DNA of 64,000 bases, from assembly GCA_023138875.1 (NCBI GenBank), contig JAGLOO010000003.1, positions 1,498 to 65,497 on the forward strand. Direction: 5' to 3'. Of this stretch, positions 19,890-38,648 are shown in pieces (within the stretch, counting starts at the first letter, position 1; every line of letters starts with the position of its first letter). Source of the DNA: Bacteroidales bacterium (GTDB lineage Bacteria; Bacteroidota; Bacteroidia; Bacteroidales; GCA-2748055). The notes below the pieces were generated by a model, which did no database searches, was not told the origin of the DNA, and saw only the letters and a program-made list of their open reading frames with translations. Position numbers and translations under genes: made by a program.

Positions 19890-20354
19890 TTAACTTTTCA
19901 CGTTTTCCAATTCATTAACAAGACGGGAAACTGTTTCAGGTTCCACATTCACACCCGTGAAAAGTGGAATATTGTATAACATGATATCAATGCTTACACT
20001 TTTTGCAACGGTTTTGAAAAATTTATAGATGCCTTCCTGGATGGGTCTGCAGTAAAAGGGTGCAACGATCATTACCGCTTCCTTTACGGAAGCAGCTCCG
20101 ACTCCTGCGACAAGCGGCACTCTGCCGGCTGCCGTTTCCTTCACCACTTTGAACATATCAATTCGTTCTCCTACAGTCATGGTAATAAATTCACCGGTTG
20201 TTCCGGTTACAGCAATCGAATCACAATGTTCTTTCTCTATAATATAGTCGGCGAGATTTTCCGCTGTTTTGTAATTTACCGTATCGGAATCCTTGTCAAA
20301 AGGTGTAACAAGCGGTATTATGATACGTCCAAGTTTTTCTTCTAATGTTTTCAT
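19890..20354 (-). CDS. DHDPS/N-acetylneuraminate-lyase family fragment (probably non-functional remnant)
   Basis: Only 154 aa against ~300 for the family. It keeps IIPLVTPF, GTTGEF and YNIP. It lacks ~15 aa before the PFY segment and everything from the Schiff-base Lys region onward. Compare the full-length paralog at 55953-56858. Confidence 0.6.
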   Translation of the reverse strand: MKTLEEKLGRIIIPLVTPFDKDSDTVNYKTAENLADYIIEKEHCDSIAVTGTTGEFITMTVGERIDMFKVVKETAAGRVPLVAGVGAASVKEAVMIVAPFYCRPIQEGIYKFFKTVAKSVSIDIMLYNIPLFTGVNVEPETVSRLVNELENVKS

Positions 20355-23334: not shown

Positions 23335-26300
23335 TCATTTTATTGGTTTAAACAACATGGAAGACGGAATATTAATCCTCTCGAGGTCCGGACTGGAAAT
23401 AAAAGCTTTGAGGTGAAATCCACCTCCTGCCTGAAAGTAACTGATCCGCAAAGTGTGCTTTCCTTCAGAGAGAATGATCTGTCCCTGTTTTTCAAGGGCA
23501 CCGTGTAAACCGTCGTTTGTTATGACAAGCTTCCCGTCGATATATAAATTACTTCCATCATTTGAATTCAGGTAAAAGGTGTACAGTGCTGTTGCCGGAA
23601 TTTCAATCGTCCCTTTGAGGATTAGTCCGAACTTATCCTGCTTAAAAGGAATCTGATCCAGTCCTATCTCATATATTGTACCAGTGCGCACGGGTTCGAG
23701 AGAAGTGAAATCCGGAATTCTTTCCCAATTGCCTTCATAATACTGATACCTCAGTCCATTTTTCTCCGGATTAACAAAAGTTAAGGAACTTGTTTTATAT
23801 GAACTGGGTTTGTAGCCGGTTCTGTAAACTTTCGCTTTAATGATTGTATTGCTGTTGATTTTAATTGGTTCTGAATAGACCGGGGAGTGTTCATCCGGTT
23901 CTTTCCCGTTAAGGGTGTATCTGATTATTGCATTTTCTTCTCCGCTGAGGATTTGTACAGTTGCTGTATCCGGTAGGAATAAAAGAGAATCTGCAGGTAT
24001 GATTTTTGGCACCGAAAGTCTGGATACCTGTATTAGATTTCTGACATTTTTTAAGACAAATTCATAATGCCCCGATTCCACCTGGTATTGTACCAAGGAA
24101 TCTTTGAATTTAATGAAAGAAGCATCTTTGCAATTTTCTGCTGTCCCATTATTGATGGTTACATCATCCGGATCTGTCGCAGGAAGCATTATGGTGGCTG
24201 TACTGTTAGCAGGAATATCAAGTTTTAAAATGAGATTGTTCCCATCCCATTCCCATCCCGATTCAATGTTACCGTAAACCGATTTATATGTGGCCCTGAC
24301 ATGGTTCAGGTTCCCGACAGGCCGGGGTTTAATAATGATGTTCCTGAAACCGGGATGTTCCGGATCGGGATTGATACCTGCAAGGGCCTGATAGAACCAC
24401 TGACATACACTGCCAAACATGGGGTGACTGTGAGAGGCATCTCCCCGCCATGTTTCCCAGATGGTGGTTGCCCCCTGGTCAATTGCATAGCCAAAGCTTG
24501 GGTAATCATGCTGGTTCATCATCGAGTATGCCAGGTCTACACGGCCATATCGGGTCAGAACGTCGAGTACAAGTGGTGTTCCCATCATTCCGGTATCAAA
24601 GTGCTCACCGGTATTGGATTCTATGTTGCATACGAGGGATTTAAATACTTCCCTGATCCTGTTTTCAGGAACCAGTCCAAATCCCAGGGCAAATACATTG
24701 GCGCCCTGACGTCCGATGGAGTAGGATTTGATGCTTTCCCGGTAATATTCCCTGTTAAAAGCTTCTTTCGTCTGAACAGCAAGATCTTTGAAATAACCGG
24801 AATCTTCAGGTATATTTAAAACAGATGCGATGTCAGACATTAGCTTCAAATCGTAATAGTAATACGCCGTACTGACCAGGGAAGGTGGTATTTCTGTTAC
24901 ATCAGGCGGCACCCATTCTCCCAGTTTCTCTTCATTGATGATCCCTGATCCGCCAGTAAGATGTGTCAGGTATTCAATCCATTTCTTCATTCCGGAATAG
25001 TGCTGCTTCAGAATGTCTTCATCGCCATAATAGAGGTACATGTACCAGGGAATGATGATATAAGCTGAACCCCATGCAGTCCCGCCACCCCCACTCTGGA
25101 AAGGCACAGTATTGGGAACATAACCGGTTGTGGTATTCTGGGCATCCTTCAGGTCGTTCATCCATTTTGTATAAAAGGAAGCCATATCAAAACTGAAGAT
25201 GGCGGCCTGTGCTGCAATCTGGCCATCTCCTGTATAACCCCTGCGCTCCCTGTGCGGACAATCGCTGGGAATGCCGCCATGCATATTCCCCAGCTGGGTC
25301 CTCTGAAAGTTGTCCAGTATTGTATTGAAAAGTTCATTTGAACTATGAAAAGTACCTGCCGGTTGCACATCGGTATTCACTACCACTCCTGTAATGTTAT
25401 CCAGGGAAAGGGGTACAGGAGACGATACATCAACGCAGCGGAATGCATGCCACGTAAACCGGGGCTCCCATACTTCAGATCCCAGCCCTTTCAGAATATA
25501 ACTGTCTGTTTGCCCATATCCGGAGCCTGCCTCTTCAGTAAAATTCATGGTAATGACCGTACCCCGGGGACCGTTCACATTAAGTTTTACCCATCCTGAG
25601 ATCATTTCACCAAGGTCATAGCGGTATATACCTTCCGCAGGTATGGTCATGCGAACCGGTTTGATAGTCCTGGTTATCCGGTCGGGCGGGGACATCTGTG
25701 CTCTTAATTTACCTGTTGGCGGACGCACTGCTTCTGACATTACCCGGTTATCTTTTGTAAAACCGGTGTTGTTCCACATCCCTTCCTCAAGGCGGGCATC
25801 ATAAATTTCACCACTGTATACTCCATTATGTAAAGCCGGACCAAAGGAGGCTTCCCAGGAACCATTGCTTAAGATATTTTCCCGGGTTCCATCTGAAAAT
25901 TCAATCTCAAATTGTGCAATAAACCGGGGAGAGTCGTAGGAATAGGGCAGATCCTCTTTTCTCTCATTTTGAAAATACCATCCATTGCCCAGGCATACTT
26001 CAAAGCTGTTTTCTCCCTGCCGGATAAAAGAGGTGATATCCCAGGTCTCATATAAGACCCGGGTGGACATGTTTCTGACCCCCTGTTCGTCAAAATCTGC
26101 CGGAGATTGCCGGCGATCGTAATTGGTGTGATTGGGTGATAATACGTGATCCCCCACTTTTACCCCATTGATATACAATTCATAATATCCGAGTCCGCTG
26201 ATATAGACACGGGCTTTGCTAATCCGGTGTGGAAATTCAGCGCTTTTACGGAAATGAATTGCAGGATCCATTCCTTCGGGTTTGACCTTTTGATATTGGT

Positions 26301-26736
26301 CCAAACCTATCCATTCTGCATGCCAGTCACCGGGATCAAGTCCCATCTCCCAGGTGGCGGTTTTGCTCCAGGCTGAAGGATTTCCATTGCGGTCCCATAT
26401 GCGAACTTTCCAGAAAACCTTCTCCCTGGGTTCCAGTTCCTCTCCCTGGTAAACAATATGCACCGACTGTCCTGACTCAATTTTCCCGGTATTCCAGAGA
26501 TCCCCTTTGTTTTCCGTAAGCAATTTTTCACTGCTTGCCACCAGAATGTGATAGGCAGTTTGTTTCTGCCCATTATGTTTCGCAAAAATTTTCCAATCCA
26601 AACGCGGATTTTGAATGTCAATCCCACACGGATCCTCCAGGTATTCACATTTCAGATCACTGACATTTGGCTGATCTGTCGTGCAACTGCTGGTGAACCA
26701 GACAAGGAATATTAAAATGATCGCTGGAACTTTCAT
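23335..26736 (-). CDS. GH78 alpha-L-rhamnosidase with C-terminal chitobiase-type and PA14 modules
   Basis: 1133-aa ORF. The N-terminus LKCEYLEDPCGIDIQNPRLDWK is typical of bacterial rhamnosidase N-domains, followed by an (alpha/alpha)6 core. IRYTLNGKEPDEHSPVYSEPI is a CHB_HEX_C-like module. The PA14-like tail spans 23338-23772. Confidence 0.85.
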   Translation of the reverse strand: MKVPAIILIFLVWFTSSCTTDQPNVSDLKCEYLEDPCGIDIQNPRLDWKIFAKHNGQKQTAYHILVASSEKLLTENKGDLWNTGKIESGQSVHIVYQGEELEPREKVFWKVRIWDRNGNPSAWSKTATWEMGLDPGDWHAEWIGLDQYQKVKPEGMDPAIHFRKSAEFPHRISKARVYISGLGYYELYINGVKVGDHVLSPNHTNYDRRQSPADFDEQGVRNMSTRVLYETWDITSFIRQGENSFEVCLGNGWYFQNERKEDLPYSYDSPRFIAQFEIEFSDGTRENILSNGSWEASFGPALHNGVYSGEIYDARLEEGMWNNTGFTKDNRVMSEAVRPPTGKLRAQMSPPDRITRTIKPVRMTIPAEGIYRYDLGEMISGWVKLNVNGPRGTVITMNFTEEAGSGYGQTDSYILKGLGSEVWEPRFTWHAFRCVDVSSPVPLSLDNITGVVVNTDVQPAGTFHSSNELFNTILDNFQRTQLGNMHGGIPSDCPHRERRGYTGDGQIAAQAAIFSFDMASFYTKWMNDLKDAQNTTTGYVPNTVPFQSGGGGTAWGSAYIIIPWYMYLYYGDEDILKQHYSGMKKWIEYLTHLTGGSGIINEEKLGEWVPPDVTEIPPSLVSTAYYYYDLKLMSDIASVLNIPEDSGYFKDLAVQTKEAFNREYYRESIKSYSIGRQGANVFALGFGLVPENRIREVFKSLVCNIESNTGEHFDTGMMGTPLVLDVLTRYGRVDLAYSMMNQHDYPSFGYAIDQGATTIWETWRGDASHSHPMFGSVCQWFYQALAGINPDPEHPGFRNIIIKPRPVGNLNHVRATYKSVYGNIESGWEWDGNNLILKLDIPANSTATIMLPATDPDDVTINNGTAENCKDASFIKFKDSLVQYQVESGHYEFVLKNVRNLIQVSRLSVPKIIPADSLLFLPDTATVQILSGEENAIIRYTLNGKEPDEHSPVYSEPIKINSNTIIKAKVYRTGYKPSSYKTSSLTFVNPEKNGLRYQYYEGNWERIPDFTSLEPVRTGTIYEIGLDQIPFKQDKFGLILKGTIEIPATALYTFYLNSNDGSNLYIDGKLVITNDGLHGALEKQGQIILSEGKHTLRISYFQAGGGFHLKAFISSPDLERINIPSSMLFKPIK

Positions 26737-26757
26737 ATGTCAAGTGGGCTTCGCATA

Positions 26758-27148
26758 TCATAGCCATGCTTTTTCTATTTGTCTTCTTAATTGTGGTATT
26801 AGCAGGTCTGGAAGTATCGTTCTCCGATCATTATCTCCTTTGCCGGAACGAACAACAATCTCATTGAGGTCGAAGTCAAAATCTTCCAGTGGTTTTTTCA
26901 TCTTTATTGTGTAAAAAACAAGCGCATTTAATGCCTGGTTTTGAGTGGATGCGGAAACCTTTCTTTCAACTGCAAGGGAAGTGAGGAATTCTCCAATCTC
27001 CTTCCCCCCACATCTCTTCAGGATATCTTTTATTATGGAAAATAATAAACCGGTATATCCATCCTATATAAGTCTTTTCTGTGCTATAGCTGAAATGATT
27101 TGTGCGAATTACTTCCCTGACATGGTCTAAAAACTTCGATCCTTTCAT
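26758..27148 (-). pseudogene. intI: integron-integrase (IntI-type tyrosine recombinase) pseudogene
   Basis: ORF 26966-27148 reads MKGSKFLDHVREVIRTNHFSYSTEKTYIGWIYRFIIFHNKRYPEEM (IntI N-terminal SAM-like domain). After the C-run at 27004-27009 the sense continues in another frame: EIGEFLTSLAVERKVSASTQNQALNALVF. It then jumps to DFDFDLNEIVVRSGKGDNDRRTILP...QIEKAWL-stop. The catalytic regions are missing. Confidence 0.75.
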
Positions 27149-27149
27149 C

Positions 27150-27323
27150 TGCCGATAAGTATTGATGTATATTCATGAAATATAATATATTATACTGCAT
27201 TTTGCTACAATATGGCTATGATATTCCATATTATACCGCAAACTTGATTTCTATTGAGTATCGGTATAATATGCTTATATTTATTGTATTGCCGCTATTG
27301 GCAGTAGAATATAATGTTCCATG
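27150..27323 (+). other. candidate attI region and attI/cassette-1 junction (G|TT at 27316|27317)
   Basis: AT-rich stretch directly upstream of the intI start. GTTCCATG at 27316-27323 is the exact reverse complement of CATGGAAC (28964-28971), the 5' box of the first attC-like site. Confidence 0.35.
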
Positions 27324-27678
27324 TCTTCAGATTCATAATCCTCTTTGTGGAGCAGATCCTTCAGATTCAGGAGATCGGTGAGCGGACTGTAGGTTACTCC
27401 GAATGGATTCTTCGTAACCATGAAGAGGCATTTCAAGTAAGGCTACAATTGGACCAGAAGTATTCGAATTTGATGACCGATTGAGTTATATCAACCGATA
27501 ATTATAAACAATGGAGCCAGTCTCATTTATCACCACGAACCCGGTATACAGATTGCTAAAGAAACATTTATGAAGATAAAATCACGATATCTGGGTGTTC
27601 TGGCAGCTGGATTTACAATGAGCAATATCCATGGTTCATGAAAGATTACTTTTAATACATAAAACGGAGGATTGAGGT

Positions 27679-28740
27679 ATGAAAAAGATCATCATTGGAA
27701 TAGCAGGGATTCTGGTAATTCTTATCATCATTTTTGTTCTAAAGCCAGCCCCCATTGACCCAGCGGCCTATATTCCTCCTGATGCTCAGGAGTTAACAGG
27801 AGTCTTGACACCAAACAACCTTTTGCAGGAGGCCGAGCTATTGGCTTTGGGAAAGATAAATGGTCCGGAAGAGGTTGCAGTGGACAGTCAGGGTCGTGTA
27901 TTTGGGGGAACACAGGATGGAAAAATAATTCGTCTTTTGCCAGATGGCAGGTTGGAGACATTTGCTGCAACTGGCGGTCGACCTCTGGGAATGAAATTTG
28001 ATGAGAATGAAAACCTGATTGTTTGCGATTCTTATAAAGGCCTGCTCTCTATCAATCCCCAGGGGGAGATCAAGATTCTGGCCACCTCAGCAGATGGAGT
28101 TCCATTTAAATTCACCGATGCCCTAGATATTTCCAGTGACGGGACAATCTACTTTACGGATGCAAGCTCCAAATATGACCAAAGCGAATATCTATATGAC
28201 CTGTTGGAATCAAAACCGCACGGTAGATTTCTGAGCTATAATCCAGCCACCGGTCAGGTAAAAGTCTTATTAAAGAATCTTTATTTTGCCAACGGGGTTG
28301 CCTTATCGCATGACGAAGACTTCGTATTAATTAACGAAACCTACCGTTACAGGATCACCAGGTATTGGTTGAGAGGCCCCAAAATGGGGACACACGAAAT
28401 CTTCATTGATAATCTACCCGGGTTTCCTGATAACATATCAAACAACCAGAAGGGCACATTCTGGCTGGCTCTTTTCACAATTCGAAACGAATCAGCAGAC
28501 AAACTCCACCCCTTTCCCTTTCGAAAAACCCTACTTTCTAAACTGCCCAAAGCTTTATGGCCGAAACCACATCCCTATGGCCTAGTCCTGGAACTGGACG
28601 CACATGGGAATATCATCCAAAGCTTACATGATCCCACAGGAAAAAACCTTAAAGAGATCACCTCCGCTCAAGAATATGGGGGTTATCTTTATCTGGGTGG
28701 TTTACACAACGATCGGATTGGAAAATATAAATTGCCATAA
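27679..28740 (+). CDS. strictosidine-synthase-like (SSL / SMP-30-type six-bladed propeller) protein with N-terminal TM anchor; cassette 1
   Basis: 353-aa ORF with GGAGG 8 nt upstream of the ATG. The pattern GPEEVAVDSQG ... LIVCDSYKGLL ... FTDALDISSDGTIYFTDAS ... FANGVALS ... GFPDNI is typical of bacterial SSL proteins. Confidence 0.75.
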   Translation: MKKIIIGIAGILVILIIIFVLKPAPIDPAAYIPPDAQELTGVLTPNNLLQEAELLALGKINGPEEVAVDSQGRVFGGTQDGKIIRLLPDGRLETFAATGGRPLGMKFDENENLIVCDSYKGLLSINPQGEIKILATSADGVPFKFTDALDISSDGTIYFTDASSKYDQSEYLYDLLESKPHGRFLSYNPATGQVKVLLKNLYFANGVALSHDEDFVLINETYRYRITRYWLRGPKMGTHEIFIDNLPGFPDNISNNQKGTFWLALFTIRNESADKLHPFPFRKTLLSKLPKALWPKPHPYGLVLELDAHGNIIQSLHDPTGKNLKEITSAQEYGGYLYLGGLHNDRIGKYKLP

Positions 28741-28963
28741 CGAAGGAATGGATCAGACTGCTAATCCAGATAATAAAAATGCGGGCAATTCTTCGTACGT
28801 ATCTTTTCCACTCCCACAAGCAATGAGGATTCTGTTGAGGAGTGAAATAACGAAGCCGAGGAAAATCAATAGCTATCAATCTGCTTTAATTTATCTGAAC
28901 GTCCATCTGGATTTTCCTAGACAAGAATTTTTCTCAAACAGTTAGTGAAGAATAATTGATTGA

Positions 28964-29063
28964 CATGGAACAAATCACTAAAGCCGACCGTGACGAGTGT
29001 CACGCACTTTGCAGAAAGGCAAAGTCCGCGCCAAGCTACGGCGGCTTAGTTCCACCGTTATAT
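28964..29063 (+). other. attC-like recombination site 1
   Basis: 5' box CATGGAAC and 3' box GTTATAT. The arms AACAAATCACTAAAGCCGACCG (28969-28990) and CGGCGGCTTAGTTCCACCGTT (29039-29059) form an imperfect inverted repeat with bulges. The central 48 nt holds two small hairpins. Confidence 0.6.
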
Positions 29064-29170
29064 GCTTTGGTTAAAATTATTGTTTTTAGGATAATAGAAA
29101 AATTTAGACAAATATGCTTAAACATGGGAAATTGTCATTTCGAAAAAATAACTAAGAAAGGAGTAATAAA

Positions 29171-31129
29171 ATGTATACCAAAAATTTAAATATCATTTTT
29201 ACAACTATCGTAGCAGTGTTTGTTTGCATGTTTATTTCCAAAGTAGCAGCCTCAGATTTATTATCTCAAGAGCAACCCGCTTTTTCATCGTCTGATGAGC
29301 TAGAATCACTAACTGTAGATAAAGCGGTTGATGGTAATATTTCAACACGCTGGGCTTCTGCTGAAGGTTCTGACCCAGAATGGATCTATGTTGATCTCGG
29401 CGTTGAGGCTTCGATTGATAGTGTTGTTTTGAACTGGGAGGTTGCATACGGCAAGGATTATGAAATCCAGGTTTCAAGCGATTCAAGCTCTTGGGAAACA
29501 GTTTATTCCATAACGGGCGGCGATGGCGGCATGGATGAACTCTCTGTTTCAGGGACTGGACGTTATGTGCGAATGTATGGCACTGCACGCGGTACGGTGT
29601 ATGGTTATTCATTATGGGAGTTTAAGATTTACGGGGCAATTGATGGAACAACAATGTATGATCTAAAGACTCAAGCGATTGGTTCCGGCTACGTCCATCC
29701 TTCAAGCGGCACTTATAGTGAAAACGTATGGGCTGAAATAGAAGCAATCCCCGATTCAGGGTGGCGGTTTGACCGCTGGGAAGGAGACTTGTCAGGAAAT
29801 ATGAATCCCACGGCCATTAAAATGGATTCCACCAAAAATGTGACTGCAGTTTTTGAACAAAAAATTATACCCACACAATCACCCGTAGGCATAAATGGAC
29901 AATTAAGTGTTGACGGCCTTAAGCTGGTTAACCAATATGGTAATCCAATTCAATTGAGAGGCATGAGCACCCACGGTCTTCAATGGTTTTGGAATAATTA
30001 TACAGATGAATCGCTGGATGTCCTTGCTTATGAGTGGGGCGCCGATATATTACGTATTTCAATGTATGTACAAGAAGGCGGTTGGGAAACAAACCCAGAT
30101 GGATTTACTGCTAAGGTCAGTACCTTAATAAATAAAGCAACAGACCGCGGAATGTATGCTTTGGTGGATTGGCACCAGCTGGAACCTCCCGATCCTAATT
30201 ATAATTTAACTAATGCAATTACCTTTTTTACGGATATCGCAACAGCACACCACGCCCAAAACAATATTATCTACGATATTTGTAATGAACCCAGTGATGT
30301 TTCCTGGACACAAATCAAGACTTATGCTGACACTTTAATCCCGATAATTCGTGCCATAGACCCAGATGCTGTGATTTCGATGGGTACTCATGGATGGTCT
30401 ACTTTAGGTGTTGCTGATGGAAAGTCACATCAGGATATTCTCGATAATCCGGTGAATTTCCCAAATATTATGTACGGTTTCCATTTCTATGCGGGTGGCC
30501 ACAAAAAACCCTATCTTGATGAACTTGATAAGGCATCAGATGTGCTACCTATATTTGTGACCGAGTGGGGAACACAATGGTATGATGGAGATCAGGAAAA
30601 TGACTTTGAAAATTCCCAAAAGTATATCAACTTGATGGCCGAGAAAAAGATTAGCTGGACAAATTGGAATTATTCTGATGACTTTCGTTCAGGAGCCGTT
30701 TGGAAAGATCCGCAGACAGGTGCTAATAATGGCCCCTGGACAGATGCTAATTTAAAGCCATCTGGTGTATGGGTTAAAGATAAAATTATGAATCCCCCTG
30801 ACGATTTTCCAACTGATGTCACATCGATTAGTGCAGATCCAACTGAATCGACAACGGCAGTTCCCGATAAATTTGAATTGCAACAGAACTATCCGAATCC
30901 ATTTAATCCAGAGACAAAAATAGATTTTAATGTAAAAGAACAATCACATGTTGAGTTAAGTATTTATGACATAAATGGGCGGTTAATCAAAAATCTTATT
31001 AATAGAAAGTATCCAGCTGGTTCATATGAAATTAAATTTAATGCAAAAAATTTATCATCAGGGATTTACTTTTATTCAATTAAAATGGGTGAATATCACT
31101 CAGTAAAGAAAATGATTTTAGTGCAATAA
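29171..31129 (+). CDS. GH5 endoglucanase (cellulase) with N-terminal F5/8 type C (CBM32-like) domain, bacterial repeat domain and T9SS C-terminal sorting domain; cassette 2
   Basis: AGGAG 7 nt upstream of the ATG. Discoidin-like AVDGNISTRWAS...WEFKIYG. GH5 motifs RGMSTHGLQWF, ICNEPS (acid/base) and VTEWGT (nucleophile). Tail LQQNYPNPFNPETKIDF...GIYFYSIKMG...KKMILVQ. Confidence 0.85.
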   Translation: MYTKNLNIIFTTIVAVFVCMFISKVAASDLLSQEQPAFSSSDELESLTVDKAVDGNISTRWASAEGSDPEWIYVDLGVEASIDSVVLNWEVAYGKDYEIQVSSDSSSWETVYSITGGDGGMDELSVSGTGRYVRMYGTARGTVYGYSLWEFKIYGAIDGTTMYDLKTQAIGSGYVHPSSGTYSENVWAEIEAIPDSGWRFDRWEGDLSGNMNPTAIKMDSTKNVTAVFEQKIIPTQSPVGINGQLSVDGLKLVNQYGNPIQLRGMSTHGLQWFWNNYTDESLDVLAYEWGADILRISMYVQEGGWETNPDGFTAKVSTLINKATDRGMYALVDWHQLEPPDPNYNLTNAITFFTDIATAHHAQNNIIYDICNEPSDVSWTQIKTYADTLIPIIRAIDPDAVISMGTHGWSTLGVADGKSHQDILDNPVNFPNIMYGFHFYAGGHKKPYLDELDKASDVLPIFVTEWGTQWYDGDQENDFENSQKYINLMAEKKISWTNWNYSDDFRSGAVWKDPQTGANNGPWTDANLKPSGVWVKDKIMNPPDDFPTDVTSISADPTESTTAVPDKFELQQNYPNPFNPETKIDFNVKEQSHVELSIYDINGRLIKNLINRKYPAGSYEIKFNAKNLSSGIYFYSIKMGEYHSVKKMILVQ

Positions 31130-31132
31130 AGC

Positions 31133-31262
31133 CATATAACAATGGTATGCACCAGAAAACAAACGCGTGCGGTTTCTTTGTAGGTTATCGTTCCGAGTAA
31201 GTGTGTGGCATTTTATCCATATTAGCCGCTGTGTTTGTTTCTGGTGATACCCCCCGTTATGC
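31133..31262 (+). other. attC-like recombination site 2
   Basis: Starts 4 nt after the GH5 stop. 5' box CATATAAC and 3' box GTTATGC. The arm GGTATGCACCAGAAAACAAAC (31144-31164) pairs with GTTTGTTTCTGGTGATACC (31233-31251) over 19 bp, with two single-base bulges. Confidence 0.65.
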
Positions 31263-31412
31263 AAAGGAGACGAAAATGAACCCCAGACAAAAGAAAGCTC
31301 TATCTATCGGATATAGCAGTTATCATTCTAATGGGCCTTTTGGCGCCATGGCAAGAAATTCAAGCAATAAGAAATTGGGACGCATCCCATTTTTGAAAAA
31401 GAGGGTCGGAAT

Positions 31413-32474
31413 ATGAAAAAAAATAATTCTCGGGATAGTTGGGATTCTGGCAATTCTAATAATAATCTTTCTTCTCCGATCGGCCTCCATTGCCCCAGCG
31501 GCTTATACCCCTCCTAAATCGCAAGAGTTAGCGGGTGTGCTGGCACCAAACAACCTTTTGCAGAAGGCCGAGCTTTTGGCCTTGGGGAAGATTAATGGTC
31601 CGGAAGAGGTGGCAGTGGACAGTCAGGGCCACGTCTATGGAGGAACGCAGGATGGAAAAATTATGTGTCTTCTGCCGGATGGCAAGCTGGAGACTTTTGC
31701 CGAAACCAAAGGTCGCCCCTTAGGCATCCAATTTGATAAGAATGAAAACCTAATTGTCTGCGATGCCTATAAGGGTTTACTCTCCATTAATCGCCAAGGG
31801 AAAATCAAAGTTCTGGCCACCTCAGCGGATGGAGTTCCCTTCAAGTTCACCGATGCCTTGGATATTTCCAGCGATGGGATTATCTATTTTACGGATGCAA
31901 GCTCCAAGTATGTGCAAAATGAGTACCTCTATGACCTTTTAGAATCAAAACCGCATGGCAGATTCCTGAGCTACGATCCAGCCACCGGCCAGATTAAGAT
32001 TCTATTGAAGAACCTTTATTTTGCCAACGGCGTGGCCTTATCTCAGCAGGAGGACTTCGTTTTGATTAATGAGACTACCGTTACAGGATCGTCCGGTACT
32101 GGTTGAAGGGCCCCAAGGCGGGAACACACGAGATCTTTATTGATAATCTGCCAGGATTTCCTGATAACATTTCAAGCAACCATAAGGGAACATTTTGGCT
32201 GGCTCTTTTTACGGTTCGGAATGAAGCCGTGGACAAACTCCATCCCTCTCCCTTTCTAAAAGCTCAAATGTCAAAACTGCCCAAAGCCTTATGGCCTAAG
32301 CCAAAGCCTTATGGCCTGGTCTTGGCTTTGGATGAACAAGGGAAAATCATCCAAAGCTTACATGAACCCACAGGAAAACACCTTAAGGAGATCACTTCCG
32401 CTCGGGAATATGGCGGTTATCTCTATCTGGGCAGTATACATAACGATCGGATCGGAAAATATAGATTACCTTAA
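31413..32474 (+). pseudogene. second strictosidine-synthase-like gene, frameshifted; cassette 3
   Basis: Paralog of 27679-28740. The ATG at 31413 is followed by an A8 run (31416-31423); with A7 it reads MKKIILGIVGILAILIIIFLL..., matching copy 1. A second -1 shift near 32075 (GAGAC-TACCG vs GAAACCTACCG in copy 1) splits ORFs 31537-32106 and 32103-32474. Confidence 0.75.
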
Positions 32475-32654
32475 TGCTTTATTAATATACGAACACAGAG
32501 GCCGCCCCAAAATAATGACATAAAGTTTGCTTCCTATTTCATTTAGATCCCTGAAAGGAGGCGAGACTGTGTCATTCAAAGAATAAGTAAAAAGGGGGCA
32601 GATTTATTTACTGAGAAGTAAGAGTATCACCTATTTTATGAAAAATAAATTGCC

Positions 32655-32730
32655 TGACAACCGCAATATCACGGACTGGCAATTCCGCTGCGCTCCATCG
32701 CCAGCCGGTTATGCGGAGCGTTCTGCGATC
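32655..32730 (+). other. attC-like recombination site 3 (less canonical)
   Basis: 5' TGACAAC and 3' GTTCTGCGATC. The arm CCGCAATATCACGGACTGGC pairs with GCCAGCCGGTTATGCGG, with three bulges and one mismatch. The 5' box does not complement the cassette-3 start. Confidence 0.45.
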
Positions 32731-32820
32731 AAAAATAAGTAATGGAAATAGTTGGGAGGTACGTTTATTTATAAGTTACCCAACATAATAAAAATGAGCA
32801 ATGATTAATAAAATACGATT

Positions 32821-33861
32821 ATGATTTCACCATTATTTAGCCATCTTTTAATACCCTATATTATTGCTATGTTTTTGGCAATAACAATGGGCGGTAGCGG
32901 AACTGCACCTGCATTCTCAGCGGCTTATGGAGCTAATGTCATAAAGAAAAGTTTGATTCCCGGTTTATTTGGAATTATGGTTTTCCTTGGTGCAATTATA
33001 GCGGGGAAAGGTACCGCAACTACAGTAGGGAAAGATTTATTAGCACCTGAAATGATGTCATTTACGGTGGTATCAATTATTCTTTTTTCAGTAACTATTG
33101 CTCTGTTGATTGCTAATTTGTTTGGAATTCCACAATCTACTAGTCAAGCAACGGTTCTATCAGTTACTGCCGTTGCATTATATTTCAATGACCTGAATAC
33201 TGACAAATTATTTATGGAAATCCTGCCAACTTGGTTTATTTTACCGATAGGTTCATTTTTCATCAGCTTATTTATTGGTAAATATATTTATCGTCCAATG
33301 AGAAAAAGGGGATATACTCTGCCTAGAGCTCAAAATGAGAATCTTAAACCCGTTTGGAATGGATTATTGGTATTAATGTCATTATACGTTGCTTTTACCA
33401 TTGGAGCGAACAATGTAGCCAATGCTGCTGGACCAATTGCATCAATGACTGCAAATGAACTTAACATATCCATAGATGAAAATTTTATAATAATAATGAT
33501 ATTGTCAACCCTGATTGTTGCACCTAGTTTTGGAATAGGAAGTTCAATTTTTGGACATAAAATTGTAAAGAATACAGGAAAAGAAATTGTATTATTTGGG
33601 AAATTCGAAGCCGTTATAATTGCTTTTGTGTCCGCCAGCTTATTGCTATTAGCCTCTATAACAAAGGGAATCCCTTCTTCATTAGTCCAATTGAATGTCG
33701 CAGCAATTTTAGGAATCGGGGTTGCAAAATTAGGAGCTAAGAACATCTTTAAAAAAACAGCAGTCAAAAAATTCTTTTTAATGTGGGTAATAGCACCAAT
33801 TATTGCATTTTCATTATCATTATTCCTAACATATTTGGCTGACCAATATGGATACTTATAA
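32821..33861 (+). CDS. PiT-family inorganic phosphate transporter; cassette 4
   Basis: 346-aa polytopic membrane ORF. The duplicated PiT signatures are GGSGTAPAFSAAYGAN and IGANNVANAAGP. Confidence 0.8.
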   Translation: MISPLFSHLLIPYIIAMFLAITMGGSGTAPAFSAAYGANVIKKSLIPGLFGIMVFLGAIIAGKGTATTVGKDLLAPEMMSFTVVSIILFSVTIALLIANLFGIPQSTSQATVLSVTAVALYFNDLNTDKLFMEILPTWFILPIGSFFISLFIGKYIYRPMRKRGYTLPRAQNENLKPVWNGLLVLMSLYVAFTIGANNVANAAGPIASMTANELNISIDENFIIIMILSTLIVAPSFGIGSSIFGHKIVKNTGKEIVLFGKFEAVIIAFVSASLLLLASITKGIPSSLVQLNVAAILGIGVAKLGAKNIFKKTAVKKFFLMWVIAPIIAFSLSLFLTYLADQYGYL

Positions 33862-34183
33862 AATTTTCGTTGGGTAATAACAATGTATATAAAAAACAGG
33901 CGGGATAGCAGTAAAATGAAGAGTTGTAGCCCGCTTTAACTATTGTGTAACTTGATAGTGTTGAAGCCCGCAAGCGCCTACTTTTCATACACTTAACGTT
34001 GAGCAAGGAAGTAGGCCGCCCGATCAAGGAAAAGATCTCAGTAAAGAAATACAGGATTGTGTCAAACAGTAGCCTCCCAGAAGCTGAACTTTGCTCATTT
34101 GAAGCTGGTGGCGTTGTCCAAAGTAAATGGAAGACTGAACCAGATGCACAAGCTTAGTTGAAGTGGGCAGAACAAAAAAATTA

Positions 34184-34248
34184 GATCGCAGAACAAATCA
34201 CTAAAGCCGACCGCTTGCAGCGCCGCTTAGTTCCACCGTTCTGCGATC
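34184..34248 (+). other. attC-like recombination site 4 (compact, ~60 bp)
   Basis: GATCGCAGAAC (34184-34194) is a perfect 11-bp inverted repeat of GTTCTGCGATC (34238-34248). The inner arms are identical or near-identical to site 1, with a 7-nt centre and unpaired spacers AAAT / TCCACC. Confidence 0.7.
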
Positions 34249-34472
34249 AAAACATAGAGATGGGCGTAGGTAAGAGGTTCGTTTATTTTGAAGTTGTATG
34301 CCGTCCGGAAAGCCCTTCCCGCATTTGGCACATTTGCAAAGCCTCACAAGCCAACCTGCAACCTAAGCTTTGCAAAAGAGCCAAATTTTCCCAGTCGCCA
34401 GAAACTACAAATAATTACCAGTATTTTGATTTACTGGCGTTTTTTAGATTTCCAAAATATGCCATATTTTCT

Positions 34473-34480
34473 TATCTTTG
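34473..34480 (+). promoter_or_regulatory. candidate Bacteroidota -7 promoter element (TAnnTTTG) for abiEi/abiEii
   Basis: TATCTTTG lies 19 nt upstream of the ATG at 34499. Motif match only. Confidence 0.25.
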
Positions 34481-34498
34481 GCAAAAATTGGGTTTAGA

Positions 34499-35266
34499 AT
34501 GCCAAAGGTTATAGAAAATAGACTGATCGAAGAATTTAAGGACAGGGAGTACTTCACGAGAGAAGAGCTCTTTGACTTCTACCGCTACTTCGAACCAGAA
34601 TTGAAAGAAGGAACTTTCGGATGGAGAATCTATGATCTGAAAAAGAGGAACATCATCAAGCCTATAAAAAGAGGGCTTTATGTAATTACTTACAAACTCA
34701 GATATAAACCGGATATCTCACCAAGTCTACTAAAAATCGCCAAGCAATTAACAGAACGATTCGGTGAGATAAAACACTGTATTTGGGAAACGGTGTGGCT
34801 GAATGAATTTACCCAACACCAAACAAGCAGATCCACCCTATTCATCGAAATAGAAAAAGGCTTTGAGGAGTCATTATTTTACGAGTTGAAGGATACGGTA
34901 CGAAGAGAAGTATTTCTAAATCCGGATGAAAAAGCCATCGATTTCTACATTGCAGAAAGCAATCAGCCGATTATCATAAAGAAGCTGCTCACAAGAGCAC
35001 CGCTTTCAAAAAGAATGGAGAAGAGGATCAAGTTCTACACACCCACACTTGAAAAAATCCTGGTGGATTTGTTCGCAGAAGAGAAGCTATTCTATTTTGT
35101 GAAAGGTTCTGAATTGATGCACATATACGAAAATGCTATCAACAGCTACACTATCAATTTCACCAAGCTTTTCAGCTATGCCAAACGTAGAGAACGGGAA
35201 CAGGATATCAAGCAGTTCATGACCAATCATATGTTTCACCTTGTAAAAGACATTATCGATAATTAA
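34499..35266 (+). CDS. AbiEi-type antitoxin-like protein (type IV TA, wHTH N-terminus)
   Basis: The track ORF starts at TTG 34478; the ATG at 34499 gives MPKVIENRL.... The N-terminus FTREELFDFY...WRIYDLKKRNIIKPIKRGLY fits the AbiEi N-domain pattern. It sits directly upstream of an AbiEii-like gene. Confidence 0.6.
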   Translation: MPKVIENRLIEEFKDREYFTREELFDFYRYFEPELKEGTFGWRIYDLKKRNIIKPIKRGLYVITYKLRYKPDISPSLLKIAKQLTERFGEIKHCIWETVWLNEFTQHQTSRSTLFIEIEKGFEESLFYELKDTVRREVFLNPDEKAIDFYIAESNQPIIIKKLLTRAPLSKRMEKRIKFYTPTLEKILVDLFAEEKLFYFVKGSELMHIYENAINSYTINFTKLFSYAKRREREQDIKQFMTNHMFHLVKDIIDN

Positions 35267-35291
35267 AGACAAATGCTTTACAGAAGAGTGG

Positions 35292-36089
35292 TTGGATCAA
35301 TTCAAAAAGCAAAAAGACCACAAGCGAGTCGACAAGATCATTCTTGAAAAAATGATTTATGCGCTGCATTTATTAGAGCGACTCAAATCAAATGGGCATG
35401 ACTTTGTATTTAAGGGTGGCACAAGTCTGGTCTTGCTGCTGGACGAAGGCAACCGATTCTCCATTGATATCGACATAATCAGCAAGACCAGTCAGGAAGA
35501 CTTGGAAGGTATTCTCGACAAGATCATTGATTCATCACATTTTTCCGAATGGAAGCTGGATGAACATCGCAGTTATCAACCAGGAGTGCTGAAAGCGCAC
35601 TATAAGTTTCCCTTTGATACCATCATTCAGGGTTCTGGAACTATTCTTCTGGATGTACTAATTGAAGATTCCATTTACCCGGAACTAATCGAAAGACCTA
35701 TAGCAACAAAATGGATTGAAACAGATAAAGAGACCATGGTCACAGTACCTTCCATAGATTCAATCACGGGAGATAAACTGACTGCTTTTGCTCCCAATAC
35801 TATTGGGATTCCTTATTTCAAAGGAAAAGACCAACAGCCGTTCTCCATGGAGATTTGCAAGCAGCTATTCGATCTGAGTAAGTTGTTCGAGAAGATTGAA
35901 AACATGGAAATCGTAGCAGCAAGTTTTAAAGCTTTTGCTGAACAGGAAATTGAATATCGGAAAAATGGAAATCCGGCATTAGCACTAACTCTTGACAAAG
36001 TGTTAAAAGACATGATAGATACGTGCGCCATACTGGTAAAAAGAGAGCGTGGGACCAATGAGGAGAAGGCCAAGACATTAAGGAATTGA
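35292..36089 (+). CDS. AbiEii/AbiGii-family nucleotidyltransferase toxin-like protein, reading frame apparently disrupted near both ends
   Basis: FVFKGGTSLVLLL...RFSIDIDI is the family core. The track start is TTG. A well-placed ATG at 35273 is in another frame. After the stop at 36087-36089 a different frame continues as ...IKELTIEHLDWNFLNRLKRQPDKSGFYYWYKTVELVSNTQ-stop (36198). Confidence 0.6.
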   Translation: MDQFKKQKDHKRVDKIILEKMIYALHLLERLKSNGHDFVFKGGTSLVLLLDEGNRFSIDIDIISKTSQEDLEGILDKIIDSSHFSEWKLDEHRSYQPGVLKAHYKFPFDTIIQGSGTILLDVLIEDSIYPELIERPIATKWIETDKETMVTVPSIDSITGDKLTAFAPNTIGIPYFKGKDQQPFSMEICKQLFDLSKLFEKIENMEIVAASFKAFAEQEIEYRKNGNPALALTLDKVLKDMIDTCAILVKRERGTNEEKAKTLRN

Positions 36090-36207
36090 CTATTGAACAT
36101 CTGGACTGGAATTTCTTGAACCGTTTGAAGCGACAGCCAGATAAATCAGGCTTCTATTATTGGTACAAGACCGTTGAATTGGTCAGTAATACACAATAAA
36201 CAGAAAA

Positions 36208-37488
36208 ATGATCACACAAGATAATTTCAAGGAACTTCTATTGAAACTTGGCTTCTCCGAGAAGGGAGATATTTTCACCAAAAAGTTCAAAGAAGTAGAT
36301 GCCTACCTTAAGGTTGACTACAAGGCTGAAAAACTTATCTATCCTGAAGACAAGGGATTGACTATAAACGAAAGGCAAACCTGTAACTTCTCTCAAAAGG
36401 AAAACTTTGTTGTTTTTGAATGTGTTCATAGACTTTTTGAGAAGGGCTATAATCCACTACACATTGAACTTGAACCTAAATGGAAAGTTGGACATGGTGC
36501 CAGTGGTGGTCGCGCGGATATTATGGTGAAAGACAATTCAGGGAAGTCTTGACTCATAATTGAATGCAAGACAGAAGGAAAGGAATTTGAAGATGCCTGG
36601 AAAAAGACGTTAATAAATGGAGGTCAATTACTTTCCTATGTAAAACAAGCGGGAAGCACGCAATTTGTTTGTTTATACGCTTCTGACTATTTGGATAACA
36701 AAGTAGTGCCAAACTATTACTTAATCACATTAAAGGACAACAAAAGACTACTGGACGAACTTGCTGAAAAAACACCACTATCATATAAAAAAGCAAAAGG
36801 ATTAGACGTTGAAGATATTTTTAAAGCCTGGAAAGAAACCTATGCTCAGGACTACGCAACCAAAGGAATATTTGAAGATGATATTCCTGCTTATGAAATA
36901 GGAAAAACTAAGTACTCTCTTAAGGACTTGAGCACCATTAGCAGCAATGATATTCAAGGGAAGTATCACAAATTTGCTACCATATTGAGACAGCACAATG
37001 TGTCCGGTCGTGAAAATGCCTTTGACAAGCTGGTTAATTTGTTTCTGTGTAAAATAGTTGATGAAACCAACAACCCAAATGAACTCAAATTCTATTGGAA
37101 AGGAATCGCTTATGATGATCAATTTAGCTTAATCGACAGATTACAAAAGCTTTATCAGGACGGAATGCAACGATTTCTGGGAGAAGATGTGGCCTATATC
37201 AGTGCAGAACAGATCGATAAAGCCTTTGATTTTTTTAAAAACGATCCGGATGCAACCAAAGATACGATCAAGAAATATTTCAAAGAGCTCAAGTTCTTTA
37301 ATAACAACGACTTCGGGTTTATTGACGTCCATAATGAAAAGTTGTTTTATCAAAACACTGCCATTCTGCTGAAGATCGTCCAAATGTTACAGGATATAAG
37401 ATTGAAAACTGAAGACGTTTCCTTCGTCTTGCGGGAACCAATATTTACTATGTCATGTTTCTCAGAATTTGTGATGCCAACTGGTTGA
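36208..37488 (+). pseudogene. restriction-modification N6-adenine DNA methyltransferase (type I/IIG-like) N-terminal portion, with in-frame stop and 3' truncation
   Basis: ORFs 36208-36552 and 36691-37488 share one frame, separated by TGA at 36550-36552 (..KDNSGKS*LIIECKTEGKEF..). The family-like sequence runs to ..LLKIVQMLQDIRLKTED and then degenerates. No SAM-binding or NPPY/F region is present. Confidence 0.6.
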
Positions 37489-38648
37489 CTAAAAAGGGGG
37501 AGGGGTGAAAAATCCGCTTCCTTTAGCCGCCAGTGGGTACTCATAAGGCTGGTTTTTTCGCCTTCTTTGTCAACCTGGTAATAGACAGTCAGGATTGAAC
37601 CATCCTCAAGCTGGACAGATGCGGGATAGCCCAGATCAGAGTTTATAGCCGGGTTTATCATTATTTCTTTGCCTGTTTCCCATGTTTTACCACCATCCCT
37701 GCTAATGCAGGCCTTTTCTCCAAAAGGTTCCCGCCGAACGCCATAAGAGACCAAAAGCAAACCATTTTGTAATTGCATAAGATGGGGTGGGTAACCCCAT
37801 ATTCCAGTTTTATGGCTGGTGGTCCAGCTTTTACCCCCATCGTAGCTTTCCGACTGCCTCAGGTGTGACTGATTGTGGTCTGCTGGATTGTATCGAAACA
37901 TAGCCACAAGTTTGCCATCTGAGAGTTCAACCACATGGGGCTCATGGGCAAAAGTTACCTGGTCCTCACTGTCTAATGGAATGGTGGAAATGAGCTGCCA
38001 CGATTGTCCGTCATCGGTAGACTGCTCTACCCCGATTATTTTCTTATCATTCACATAGCCAGTGCCCACATAGAGCAATCTGCCATCGGATAGTTCTATT
38101 GGCTCATGAGGGGCAGAAACAACCTGTTTTACGGGTTCTTCCCAGGATTTACCACCATCCAGGGACCTCCTGGTCCAGTTACCTATCCAGTATTTTTTGG
38201 TTTCATCTCCCAGTTTATCTGCATGACGTTTCCAGGATGGATTCCTGTCATAAAACTTTTTTGTATCAAAAGCCAAAGAGGTAAACCAGTTTACCAGCAG
38301 GGTTCCCTTTGTTGTCTCAAGGATTCCTGCATCTCGGTCATCGAGCGGCGTATTGTTTATTGTCTCGGGATCGGTCCAGGTTTCGCCATGATCGGTACTG
38401 CGAATCATCTGGGTAATTCCAAACGGGCATACATGGGCATCGCGGTTACCGGAAAAGACCACCAGCAGTTCGCCCGACCTGGTTTTGGTAATACTTGGCC
38501 AGCCAATGTATTTGCCAGGCTGCTTGCAAATGACCCTGGTGCTAATTATATCTGCATAAAGGCCAGGTTTTTCAACACTGAGAACAGGTATCGAGGTGAA
38601 AAATAAAATGGTGAAAACAATCTTCAAGCATTTGTTAATCAGTAACAT
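37350..38648 (-). CDS. BNR/Asp-box sialidase-superfamily beta-propeller protein
   Basis: Five Asp-boxes: STDHGETW, SLDGGKSW, STDDGQSW, SYDGGKSW, SRDGGKTW. The start MLLINKCLKIVFTILFF at 38648 avoids overlap with the upstream gene. The last ~45 codons overlap the methylase fragment and look like read-through (see findings). Confidence 0.75.
   Translation of the reverse strand: MLLINKCLKIVFTILFFTSIPVLSVEKPGLYADIISTRVICKQPGKYIGWPSITKTRSGELLVVFSGNRDAHVCPFGITQMIRSTDHGETWTDPETINNTPLDDRDAGILETTKGTLLVNWFTSLAFDTKKFYDRNPSWKRHADKLGDETKKYWIGNWTRRSLDGGKSWEEPVKQVVSAPHEPIELSDGRLLYVGTGYVNDKKIIGVEQSTDDGQSWQLISTIPLDSEDQVTFAHEPHVVELSDGKLVAMFRYNPADHNQSHLRQSESYDGGKSWTTSHKTGIWGYPPHLMQLQNGLLLVSYGVRREPFGEKACISRDGGKTWETGKEIMINPAINSDLGYPASVQLEDGSILTVYYQVDKEGEKTSLMSTHWRLKEADFSPLPLFSQPVGITNSEKHDIVNIGSRKTKETSSVFNLISCNIWTIFSRMAVF

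Follow-up and report, generated by a model that had tools for sequence, protein, structure and literature searches.

This locus raises the question of what became of an integron integrase gene (intI) that lies against the start codon of an α-L-rhamnosidase gene, and of what now precedes that enzyme gene. The DNA analysed, called the window below (64,000 nucleotides of a Bacteroidales bacterium), comes from a cold-seep metagenome. The initial annotation had described an intI gene with three lesions, cut off at its 3' end and separated from the rhamnosidase gene by 21 nucleotides (nt). We compared the region with related loci (L numbers) and related proteins (P numbers). The feature is very probably a pseudogene of intI from a sedentary chromosomal integron of an uncultured cold-seep Bacteroidales bacterium, eroded at the site where relatives carry an FG-GAP gene.

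On the minus strand, from 27148 to 26733, three reading frames jointly spell an integron integrase. Frame A is MKGSKFLDHVREVIRTNHFSYSTEKTYIGWIYRFIIFHNKRYPEEM (27148-27011), which begins with MKGSKFLD and ends with RYPEEM. Frame B ends in KEIGEFLTSLAVERKVSASTQNQALNALVFYTIKMKKPLEDFDFDLNEIVVRSGKGDNDRRTILPDLLIPQLRRQIEKAWL and a stop at 26760-26758. Frame C reads GYDMRSPLDI-stop, and its TGA (26735-26733) overlaps the rhamnosidase (GH78) ATG at 26736-26734. The pieces retained are as follows.

26733-27148, minus strand: intI remnant, whole; 416 nt left of the 960-nt gene, own start and own stop both kept
27011-27148, minus strand: piece A, intI codons 1-46, frame A; 95% nucleotide identity to intact L036 and 98% to L039
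26919-27009, minus strand: piece B1, intI codons 47-77, frame B, from the alignment to L036
26768-26870, minus strand: piece B2, intI codons 150-184 (FDLNEIVVRSGKGDNDRR..QIEKA), with the catalytic-Lys hairpin region retained
26756-26767, minus strand: piece C1, intI codons 280-284 (GYDI region), 12 nt, colinear and in the same frame as C2
26733-26755, minus strand: piece C2, intI codons 313-319 (RSPLDI) and the native TGA at 26735-26733; E 1.5e-5 alone, in a tiny search space

The remnant was colinear with intact 319-aa IntI sequences of the same clade, protein and nucleotide alignments giving an identical order of pieces. The initial annotation had proposed an alignment to the IntI profile TIGR02249, and this agreed: the read-through of the pieces scored 115 bits (E=3.6e-33), with query residues 6-79 mapping to profile positions 1-74 and residues 87-127 to positions 140-180. 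The same read-through matched PF13495 with E=6.6e-25. Intact clade members of 319 aa, such as P0128 and P0121, reached 415-422 bits against TIGR02249, and the remnant falls below the 265-bit cutoff of that profile solely because 57% of the gene is missing. The 92-aa open reading frame (ORF) of the window itself had no entry in the contig index. Decay of the whole IntI clade, suggested by the top 120 matches to the 139-aa read-through (all of 243 aa or less), was rejected: a 319-aa composite query gave thousands of full-length proteins, and the apparent clade-wide decay arose because the short query biased the top matches.

To map the lesions, we used the intact 960-nt intI gene of L036 as the reference in a global alignment, in which the retained blocks were 83-95% identical. 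Seven indels separate the two genes (+1, -1, -1, -1, -168, -287 and -87; net -544 nt, from 960 to 416), so the three lesions first reported were an undercount.

27004-27010, minus strand: +1 nt lesion, ATG-T-GGGGGG here against ATG-GGTGGG in intact genes; frame A to frame B
26893-26918, minus strand: three 1-nt losses, T7 to T6 (26918-26913) and two more within 27 nt; net -3
26866-26886, minus strand: junction of a 168-nt in-frame deletion; reference nt 279-448, aa 93-149, Arg-I R135 removed
26766-26768, minus strand: junction of a 287-nt deletion, between GCA and TGG at 26767/26766; reference nt 552-838, frame B to frame C
26754-26756, minus strand: junction of an 87-nt deletion, near 26755; reference nt 851-937, His-II H293 and catalytic Tyr Y302 removed

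The frameshift placed by the initial annotation at the C-run 27004-27009, after ..RYPEEM, was borne out: the extra base sits at 27010, and frame A then switches at the run into ..KEIGEFLTSLAVERKVSASTQNQALNALVF. After the losses around the T-run, five codons read YTIKM where intact genes have LHKKVL. The internal deletion between ..KKPLE and DFDFDLNEIVVRSGKGDNDRRTILP, said to remove the first catalytic Arg, was likewise recovered; aa 93-149 with R135 are absent, and profile positions 75-139 of TIGR02249 are skipped. In the intact gene this 168-nt segment is flanked by the 10-nt direct repeats GACTTTAAAC, and the 287-nt and 87-nt junctions show shorter or approximate microhomology only. Taken together, the microhomologies at the junctions suggest replication slippage or microhomology-mediated deletion as the mechanism of erosion. 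The 287-nt deletion takes out the IntI-specific insertion and HxxR (H267/R270), and the frame-B stop at 26760-26758 is its by-product.

Two of these lesions have counterparts elsewhere. The T6 state is also found in L039, where it may be inherited or recurrent; T7 to T6 recurs in many unrelated relatives. At least eight otherwise unrelated clade members are ORFs of exactly 83 aa ending in NALVF(C/Y)(T/I)K(K/R)(Y/S) and a stop (listed with window positions 26913-26918 are the relatives P0030, P0044, P0048, P0052, P0063, P0068 and P0107), all accounted for by T7 to T6 in GTT TTT TTA; in intact genes GUU UUU UUA forms an in-frame U UUU UUA heptamer. The T-run therefore looks like a mutational hot spot in this IntI clade, and possibly something more. 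An almost identical in-frame loss of the Arg-I segment was found in three sequences with 73-77% identity (168 nt in the window at 26866-26886, 174 nt in L001 at 2730/2731, protein P0014, and 56 aa in P0003). It falls between GACTTTAAAC-type direct repeats, and the three deletions appear to be independent events.

Catalytic residues R135, H267, R270, H293 and Y302 (P0128 numbering) all lie in deleted segments, and the K160 region alone remains of the set R-K-H-R-H/W-Y. The IntI-specific additional domain (the ALERKYPNA..W.Y.FP region, within reference nt 552-838) is present in P0121-P0128 and deleted here. Alignment to intact relatives thus upheld the claim that the IntI-specific insertion, HxxR and the catalytic Tyr had been lost, and the second His is gone as well. 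Without Arg-I, HxxR, His-II, the catalytic Tyr and the IntI-specific domain, the remnant cannot recombine DNA. By these alignments it is a member of the IntI family by descent and not by function.

The 3' end of the gene was reported as truncated, with everything after ..RRQIEKAWL lost, and this proved wrong. GYDMRSPLDI-stop consists of codons 280-284 and 313-319 with the native stop, so that the final 35 nt of intI survive in a third frame (GYD joined to MRSPLDI-stop); the native 3' end is kept, and the catalytic half was lost in the internal 287-nt and 87-nt deletions. This ending matches the C-terminal region of P0034 and of P0121-P0128, and RSPLDI-stop was found in all of P0121-P0128. Frame C is read as the native IntI C-terminus with a hole in it because intact P0128 and P0121 share its ending. 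Piece C1 is weak by itself (E 0.33), and the chance origin of RSPLDI-stop at that site was estimated at about 4e-8. A frame-B stop does stand at 26760-26758, 21 nt from the GH78 ATG, as first reported; the true intI stop is the TGA that overlaps this ATG, and the 21 nt taken for a spacer are intI codons. We therefore consider the region best annotated as one intI pseudogene (26733-27148), not as two small ORFs and a spacer.

Two other explanations concern the lesions themselves. A reading with a frameshift, a single internal deletion and a truncated 3' end, in which GH78-side DNA begins after ..EKAWL with a 21-nt spacer foreign to intI, accounts for the frame-B stop and for the absent catalytic half, but the 35 nt that lead up to the GH78 ATG and run across it are codons 280-284 and 313-319 with the native stop, ordered and in one frame, and the C-terminal block alone gives E=1.5e-5 in a tiny search space; we judge this reading very unlikely. 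The lesions might instead be artefacts of assembly or sequencing, that is, homopolymer frameshifts together with deletions that are chimeric joins of several community intI copies. Numerous related intI copies do occur in the same samples, depth rises to 235-354x over the conserved intI parts against a baseline of about 50x, and lesions are located in G- and T-runs. Against this, contigs built by a separate assembler (Logan) from run X1 at about 48-54x span 26500-27116 and 27119-27500 with 0 differences at every junction, and contigs of the same allele from a second cold-seep sample, X2, span 26722-26948 and 26920-27113, again with 0 differences; four loci of other studies also pair attI with GH78 and carry different remnants. 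The initial annotation had set an intact frame on resequencing against its own reading, and these contigs instead reproduce the lesions. The related community copies map to the conserved parts only and have one base fewer at 27010, which marks the +1 as a feature of this allele. As the X1 and X2 contigs are identical over the junctions, assembly error does not account for the lesions, and an artefact seems extremely improbable.

The remaining alternatives grant the lesions and give the remnant a use. A small protein of some use might still be made from it, such as an N-terminal DNA-binding fragment of the SAM-like type, which would compete with an IntI acting in trans or regulate attI; the 5' part is unusually conserved, many relatives encode 83-aa ORFs with the N-domain only, and the corresponding ORF is open in L039. 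The window ORF, however, is broken at codon 46 by the +1 and gives 60 aa, 14 of them out of frame; all three differences from L039 in codons 1-46 are nonsynonymous, and L064 and L003b are without any coding part, which leaves such a protein a most doubtful idea. Phase variation or programmed frameshifting, with slippage at the G6 and T6 runs as an on/off switch, draws on the in-frame U UUU UUA heptamer (GUU UUU UUA) of intact genes and on the recurrence of T7 to T6 in at least eight relatives. A programmed frameshift requires intact coding sequence on either side of the slippery run, but here 542 nt of catalytic sequence are deleted downstream, which no restoration of frame can return, and the downstream parts of L039 and L040 are deleted or fragmented too. 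A switch of this kind is barely credible. We thus retain the reading of the feature as an intI pseudogene.

The pseudogene stands at the head of an integron whose other parts are still in place.

27149-27318, minus strand: conserved intI-upstream block (attI and presumed Pint/Pc region), from homology to other integrons
27316-27322, plus strand: attI crossover between G and TTCCAT (27316/7), where homology to other integrons ends
27317-34244, plus strand: four attC-bounded cassettes, with attC at 28965-29063, 31134-31262, 32655-32726 and 34188-34244
34245-37509, plus strand: distal inserted block without a clear attC (two unknown ORFs and a DUF6577-AbiEii pair), ending where homology to the BNR gene resumes

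Homology to integrons of the clade (L036, L002, L039 and L003a) runs from the intI start through the block of about 170 nt and ends at 27318. On the plus strand the crossover context is AATATAATG followed directly by TTCCAT, a sequence complementary to ATGGAAC, the R'' box in the first attC (28965). The later cassettes also start with sequence matching their own attC R'' boxes, TTATAT with ATATAAC (31134) and TTCTGC with GCAGAAC (34188). The attC sites were called by hand, and their bottom-strand hairpins had z-scores of -3.7, -2.0, not significant and -5.6. GTTATAT at 27485 was tried as the attI crossover and rejected, because homology to L036, L039 and L003a ends at the G/TTCCAT boundary at 27316, complementing the R'' box of the first attC. 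A fifth attC at 37204-37300 (GCAGAAC seed) was also rejected, as it forms no hairpin (z +0.5) and lies inside an ORF. A generic AAC..GTT hairpin scan proved too noisy to identify attC sites alone. An Rfam scan of 26000-29500 gave no match. The locus thus has attI beside intI and divergent cassettes with attC hairpins and R''/R' boxes, as an integron does; the functional self-encoded integrase of a complete integron is lacking here, intI being a pseudogene, and we found no second intI in the 64-kb window. The intact relative L035 has the same layout with cassettes of the toxin-antitoxin (TA) type (ParDE/AbiEii-type).

The first cassette carries a strictosidine-synthase-like gene, and the second encodes a GH5 enzyme with a T9SS tail; a further, frameshifted strictosidine-synthase-like copy and a PHO4 transporter gene follow. 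The GH5 cassette (29058-31256) is unusually large and enzyme-like, with 2.2 kb for a 652-aa GH5/F5-F8/T9SS-tail protein. The two strictosidine-synthase-like copies (27679-28740 and 31413-32474, repeats D1/D2) lie in separate cassettes at 79-82% nucleotide identity, and a frameshift divides the second copy between ORFs 31537-32106 and 32103-32474. The first ~55 nt past the R' box are homologous (72%) in two successive cassettes (32720-32777 and 34238-34295, GTTCTGCGATCAAAA..GTTTATTT..AAGTT), and these similar starts may represent a shared cassette leader. In the distal array (34478-36089), a DUF6577 gene is followed by an AbiEii-type nucleotidyltransferase toxin gene, a TA-like pair; pairs of this sort stabilise chromosomal integrons.

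On the other side of the remnant lies the gene whose upstream region the integron has taken over.

23335-26736, minus strand: GH78 α-L-rhamnosidase, 1133 aa, lipoprotein-type signal peptide, from Pfam domains

Its Pfam set was above gathering thresholds (Bac_rhamnosid6H with E=4e-93, the N, concanavalin-like and C domains, and Ig_Rha78A_N), and its dN/dS of about 0.16 between the window and L039 indicates a gene under purifying selection. Further down, a DHDPS-family ORF of 154 aa (19890-20354) matches Pfam positions 2-157 of 289 only and may represent a gene of this operon that has been cut short.

The initial annotation had proposed that integron DNA replaced the native upstream region of GH78, and the relatives supported it. 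The orthologues in L004, L006 and L013 (74-80% aa identity) have the order BNR, FG-GAP/VCBS, GH78, and the same order is found in the metagenomic loci L043-L046, L050 and L052; in these nine relatives the FG-GAP/VCBS gene lies directly before GH78 and ends 0-3 nt ahead of its ATG. In the window, homology to the GH78 orthologues starts at 26739 and BNR homology stops near 37509, so that about 10.8 kb of intI remnant, attI, cassettes and distal block separate the two genes; the window holds no FG-GAP remnant. As GH78 is an internal operon gene in the relatives, what was lost is a gene and not a promoter region. The BNR/sialidase-like gene shows homology to relatives only to residue 391 of 413; its last ~53 codons (37350-37509) come from inserted DNA and overlap the plus-strand ORF 36691-37488.

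The overlap of stop and start points to how the junction may have formed. Intact intI genes end in GAT(A/G)TATGA, GH78 of L013 starts in the native context TAGCATATGAAAG, and the window reads ..GACATATGAAAG. A deletion between two ATATGA motifs, one at the intI end and one in the GH78 start context, would have removed the FG-GAP gene and formed the stop/start overlap, and such a deletion would yield the exact overlap with both codons spared. The possibility that intI-derived DNA extends into GH78 was also considered, as TTCCA past the intI stop resembles the flanks in L035 and L036; we judged the likeness coincidental, because L013 shows that MK and the signal peptide are native to GH78.

The conserved upstream block precedes GH78 in four other loci (L039, L041, L064 and L003b), where the orthologous gene follows intI remnants that differ or are absent, and it precedes an intact intI in L036. 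The attI block is conserved in eight sequences, and roughly 100-170 nt of it are kept in the GH78 loci. L039 is 92% identical over window positions 27319-26878 and has T6 in common with the window, together with a different 93-nt deletion; its intI reading goes from ..DFDL straight to the GH78 ATG, and its junctions carry CA(C)TGG and CTTGAT microhomology. In L041 the intI start is lost, and codons ~30-49 and ~229-254 are kept and fused into the GH78 signal peptide. In L064 and L003b the upstream block abuts the GH78 ATG directly (GCGGTATAATATG joined to AAAATTCC, with ATATG at the junction), and the coding part of intI is wholly gone. The first cassettes differ as well, with the strictosidine-synthase-like gene in the window, a 511-aa GH140-like gene with its own attC in L039 and an AraC gene in L003b.

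Since the same attI block stands before GH78 in four other loci with differing or absent remnants, the junction is old and erosion is ongoing. The GH78 dS of about 0.5-0.6, the differing remnants and the differing first cassettes agree with this, and they further indicate that erosion was lineage-specific and that cassettes have turned over at attI. The attI-GH78 junction would then predate the split of at least five lineages (the window, L039, L041, L064 and L003), each of which would have eroded intI in its own way, down to nothing in L064 and L003b, with the attI block kept by all.

Several features of these loci were noted in addition. The GH78 ORF of L041 (3305-3560) is fused in frame to intI codons, its original ATG deleted; a replacement start and signal peptide could be provided there by the GTG of codon V250 in intI and the TNAFILILLVWFTSSC that comes after it. 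L003 has two copies of the attI block (1872-2016 and 3284-3377), one with the first seven intI codons only, abutting a sulfatase gene, and the other abutting GH78 with a divergent AraC gene alongside. In L039, the GH140-like gene (DUF5060/apiosidase-like, at about 440-2188) lies between the attI crossover and attC.

The 5' part of the dead gene is better conserved than its functional neighbour. Between the window and L039, codons 1-46 of the remnant differ at 3 of 138 nt, all nonsynonymous, and window positions 27149-27318 and 27011-27148 are 92-98% identical to L039 2189-2632 (92% over 445 nt). The adjacent GH78 genes show 84% nucleotide identity (pS 0.40), and given this overall divergence the binomial probability of the 5' conservation is 2e-7. 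Simple neutral decay since a shared junction would not predict this difference. Possible explanations are constraint on attI/promoter DNA, a more recent exchange of the platform, or gene conversion by other intI copies, of which the community has many (235-354x over these parts, the baseline being about 50x).

Because there is no intergenic space and GH78 is an internal operon gene in the relatives, its promoter is to be sought within the remnant or beyond. From such a site, inside the remnant or upstream, GH78 and its downstream genes would now be transcribed, the likeliest source being read-through from Pint in the conserved block. We favour this block because there is no terminator-like site between it and GH78 (none was found in 26600-27750). 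It is kept in all five loci and holds the best sigma-70-like match, TAGCCA-18-TATAAT (27218 to 27189), in a scan that found 9 such sites against 4.7±2.1 in shuffled sequences, which is no enrichment; Bacteroidota promoters differ from the sigma-70 type, and by eye no good Bacteroidetes-type TAnnTTTG box was found. A promoter created at a deletion junction, AAGACA-17-TATGAT (26785 to 26757), is retained as a candidate only, since it matches at 9 of 12 positions in AT-rich DNA, does not exceed shuffles and has no counterpart in the sister loci.

In clinical class 1 integrons, a 3'-truncated ΔintI1 keeps Pc and attI1, and the truncation is usually caused by IS elements. The remnant resembles ΔintI1 in that the 5' intI end and the attI/promoter region were preferentially kept, and differs in its internal short-repeat deletions and surviving native 3' end. 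About one third of the intI genes in genomes are pseudogenes, and orthologous loci often carry independent lesions (PMC2426708). The present remnant resembles the 'pseudo-integrons' described there (Nemergut et al. 2008, PMC2426708; Xanthomonas integrons among them), chromosomal integrons in which frameshifts, stops or deletions inactivated the integrase while attI and cassettes remain, the chromosomal position is fixed and related strains carry different lesions at orthologous loci. Unlike them, the present case comes from an uncultured cold-seep Bacteroidales host, has lost 57% of the gene with both ends kept, and interrupts a glycoside-hydrolase operon with the stop overlapping the next start. 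Active intI1 is costly; in the laboratory, early frameshifts abolish it in a matter of weeks (Starikova et al. 2012, PMC3510236). Those knock-outs share with this locus the rationale of a costly integrase and frameshifts that fall early, within the gene's first quarter and at short nucleotide runs; they are single fresh mutations in a class 1 integron, whereas here there is a long natural series with large deletions.

The locus is one more intI pseudogene, a product of ordinary gene decay with an unusually complete comparative record, and it lies beside a CAZyme operon, an uncommon neighbour. Its value lies in that record, in which five related loci show successive states of one gene being erased by short-repeat deletions that in every case spare the attI block and the start codon of the neighbouring gene. 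The locus is also a record of a chromosomal integron with enzyme-sized cassettes inside a Bacteroidales glycoside-hydrolase cluster, a host group and a cassette content that have been little studied. A further reading, which we regard as possible though rather unlikely, is that, in a single sediment Bacteroidales lineage, the dead attI/Pint block has been co-opted as the 5' control of the GH78 operon. In that case selection on this function, or on the use of attI by an integrase acting in trans, would hold the block and the ~140 nt at the 5' end of intI nearly constant across five or more lineages while short-repeat deletions strip away the remainder of the gene, and the same integron would trade unusually large CAZyme-type cassettes within a carbohydrate-degradation cluster. 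If this were true, integrons would be linked to the evolution of polysaccharide utilisation in Bacteroidota.
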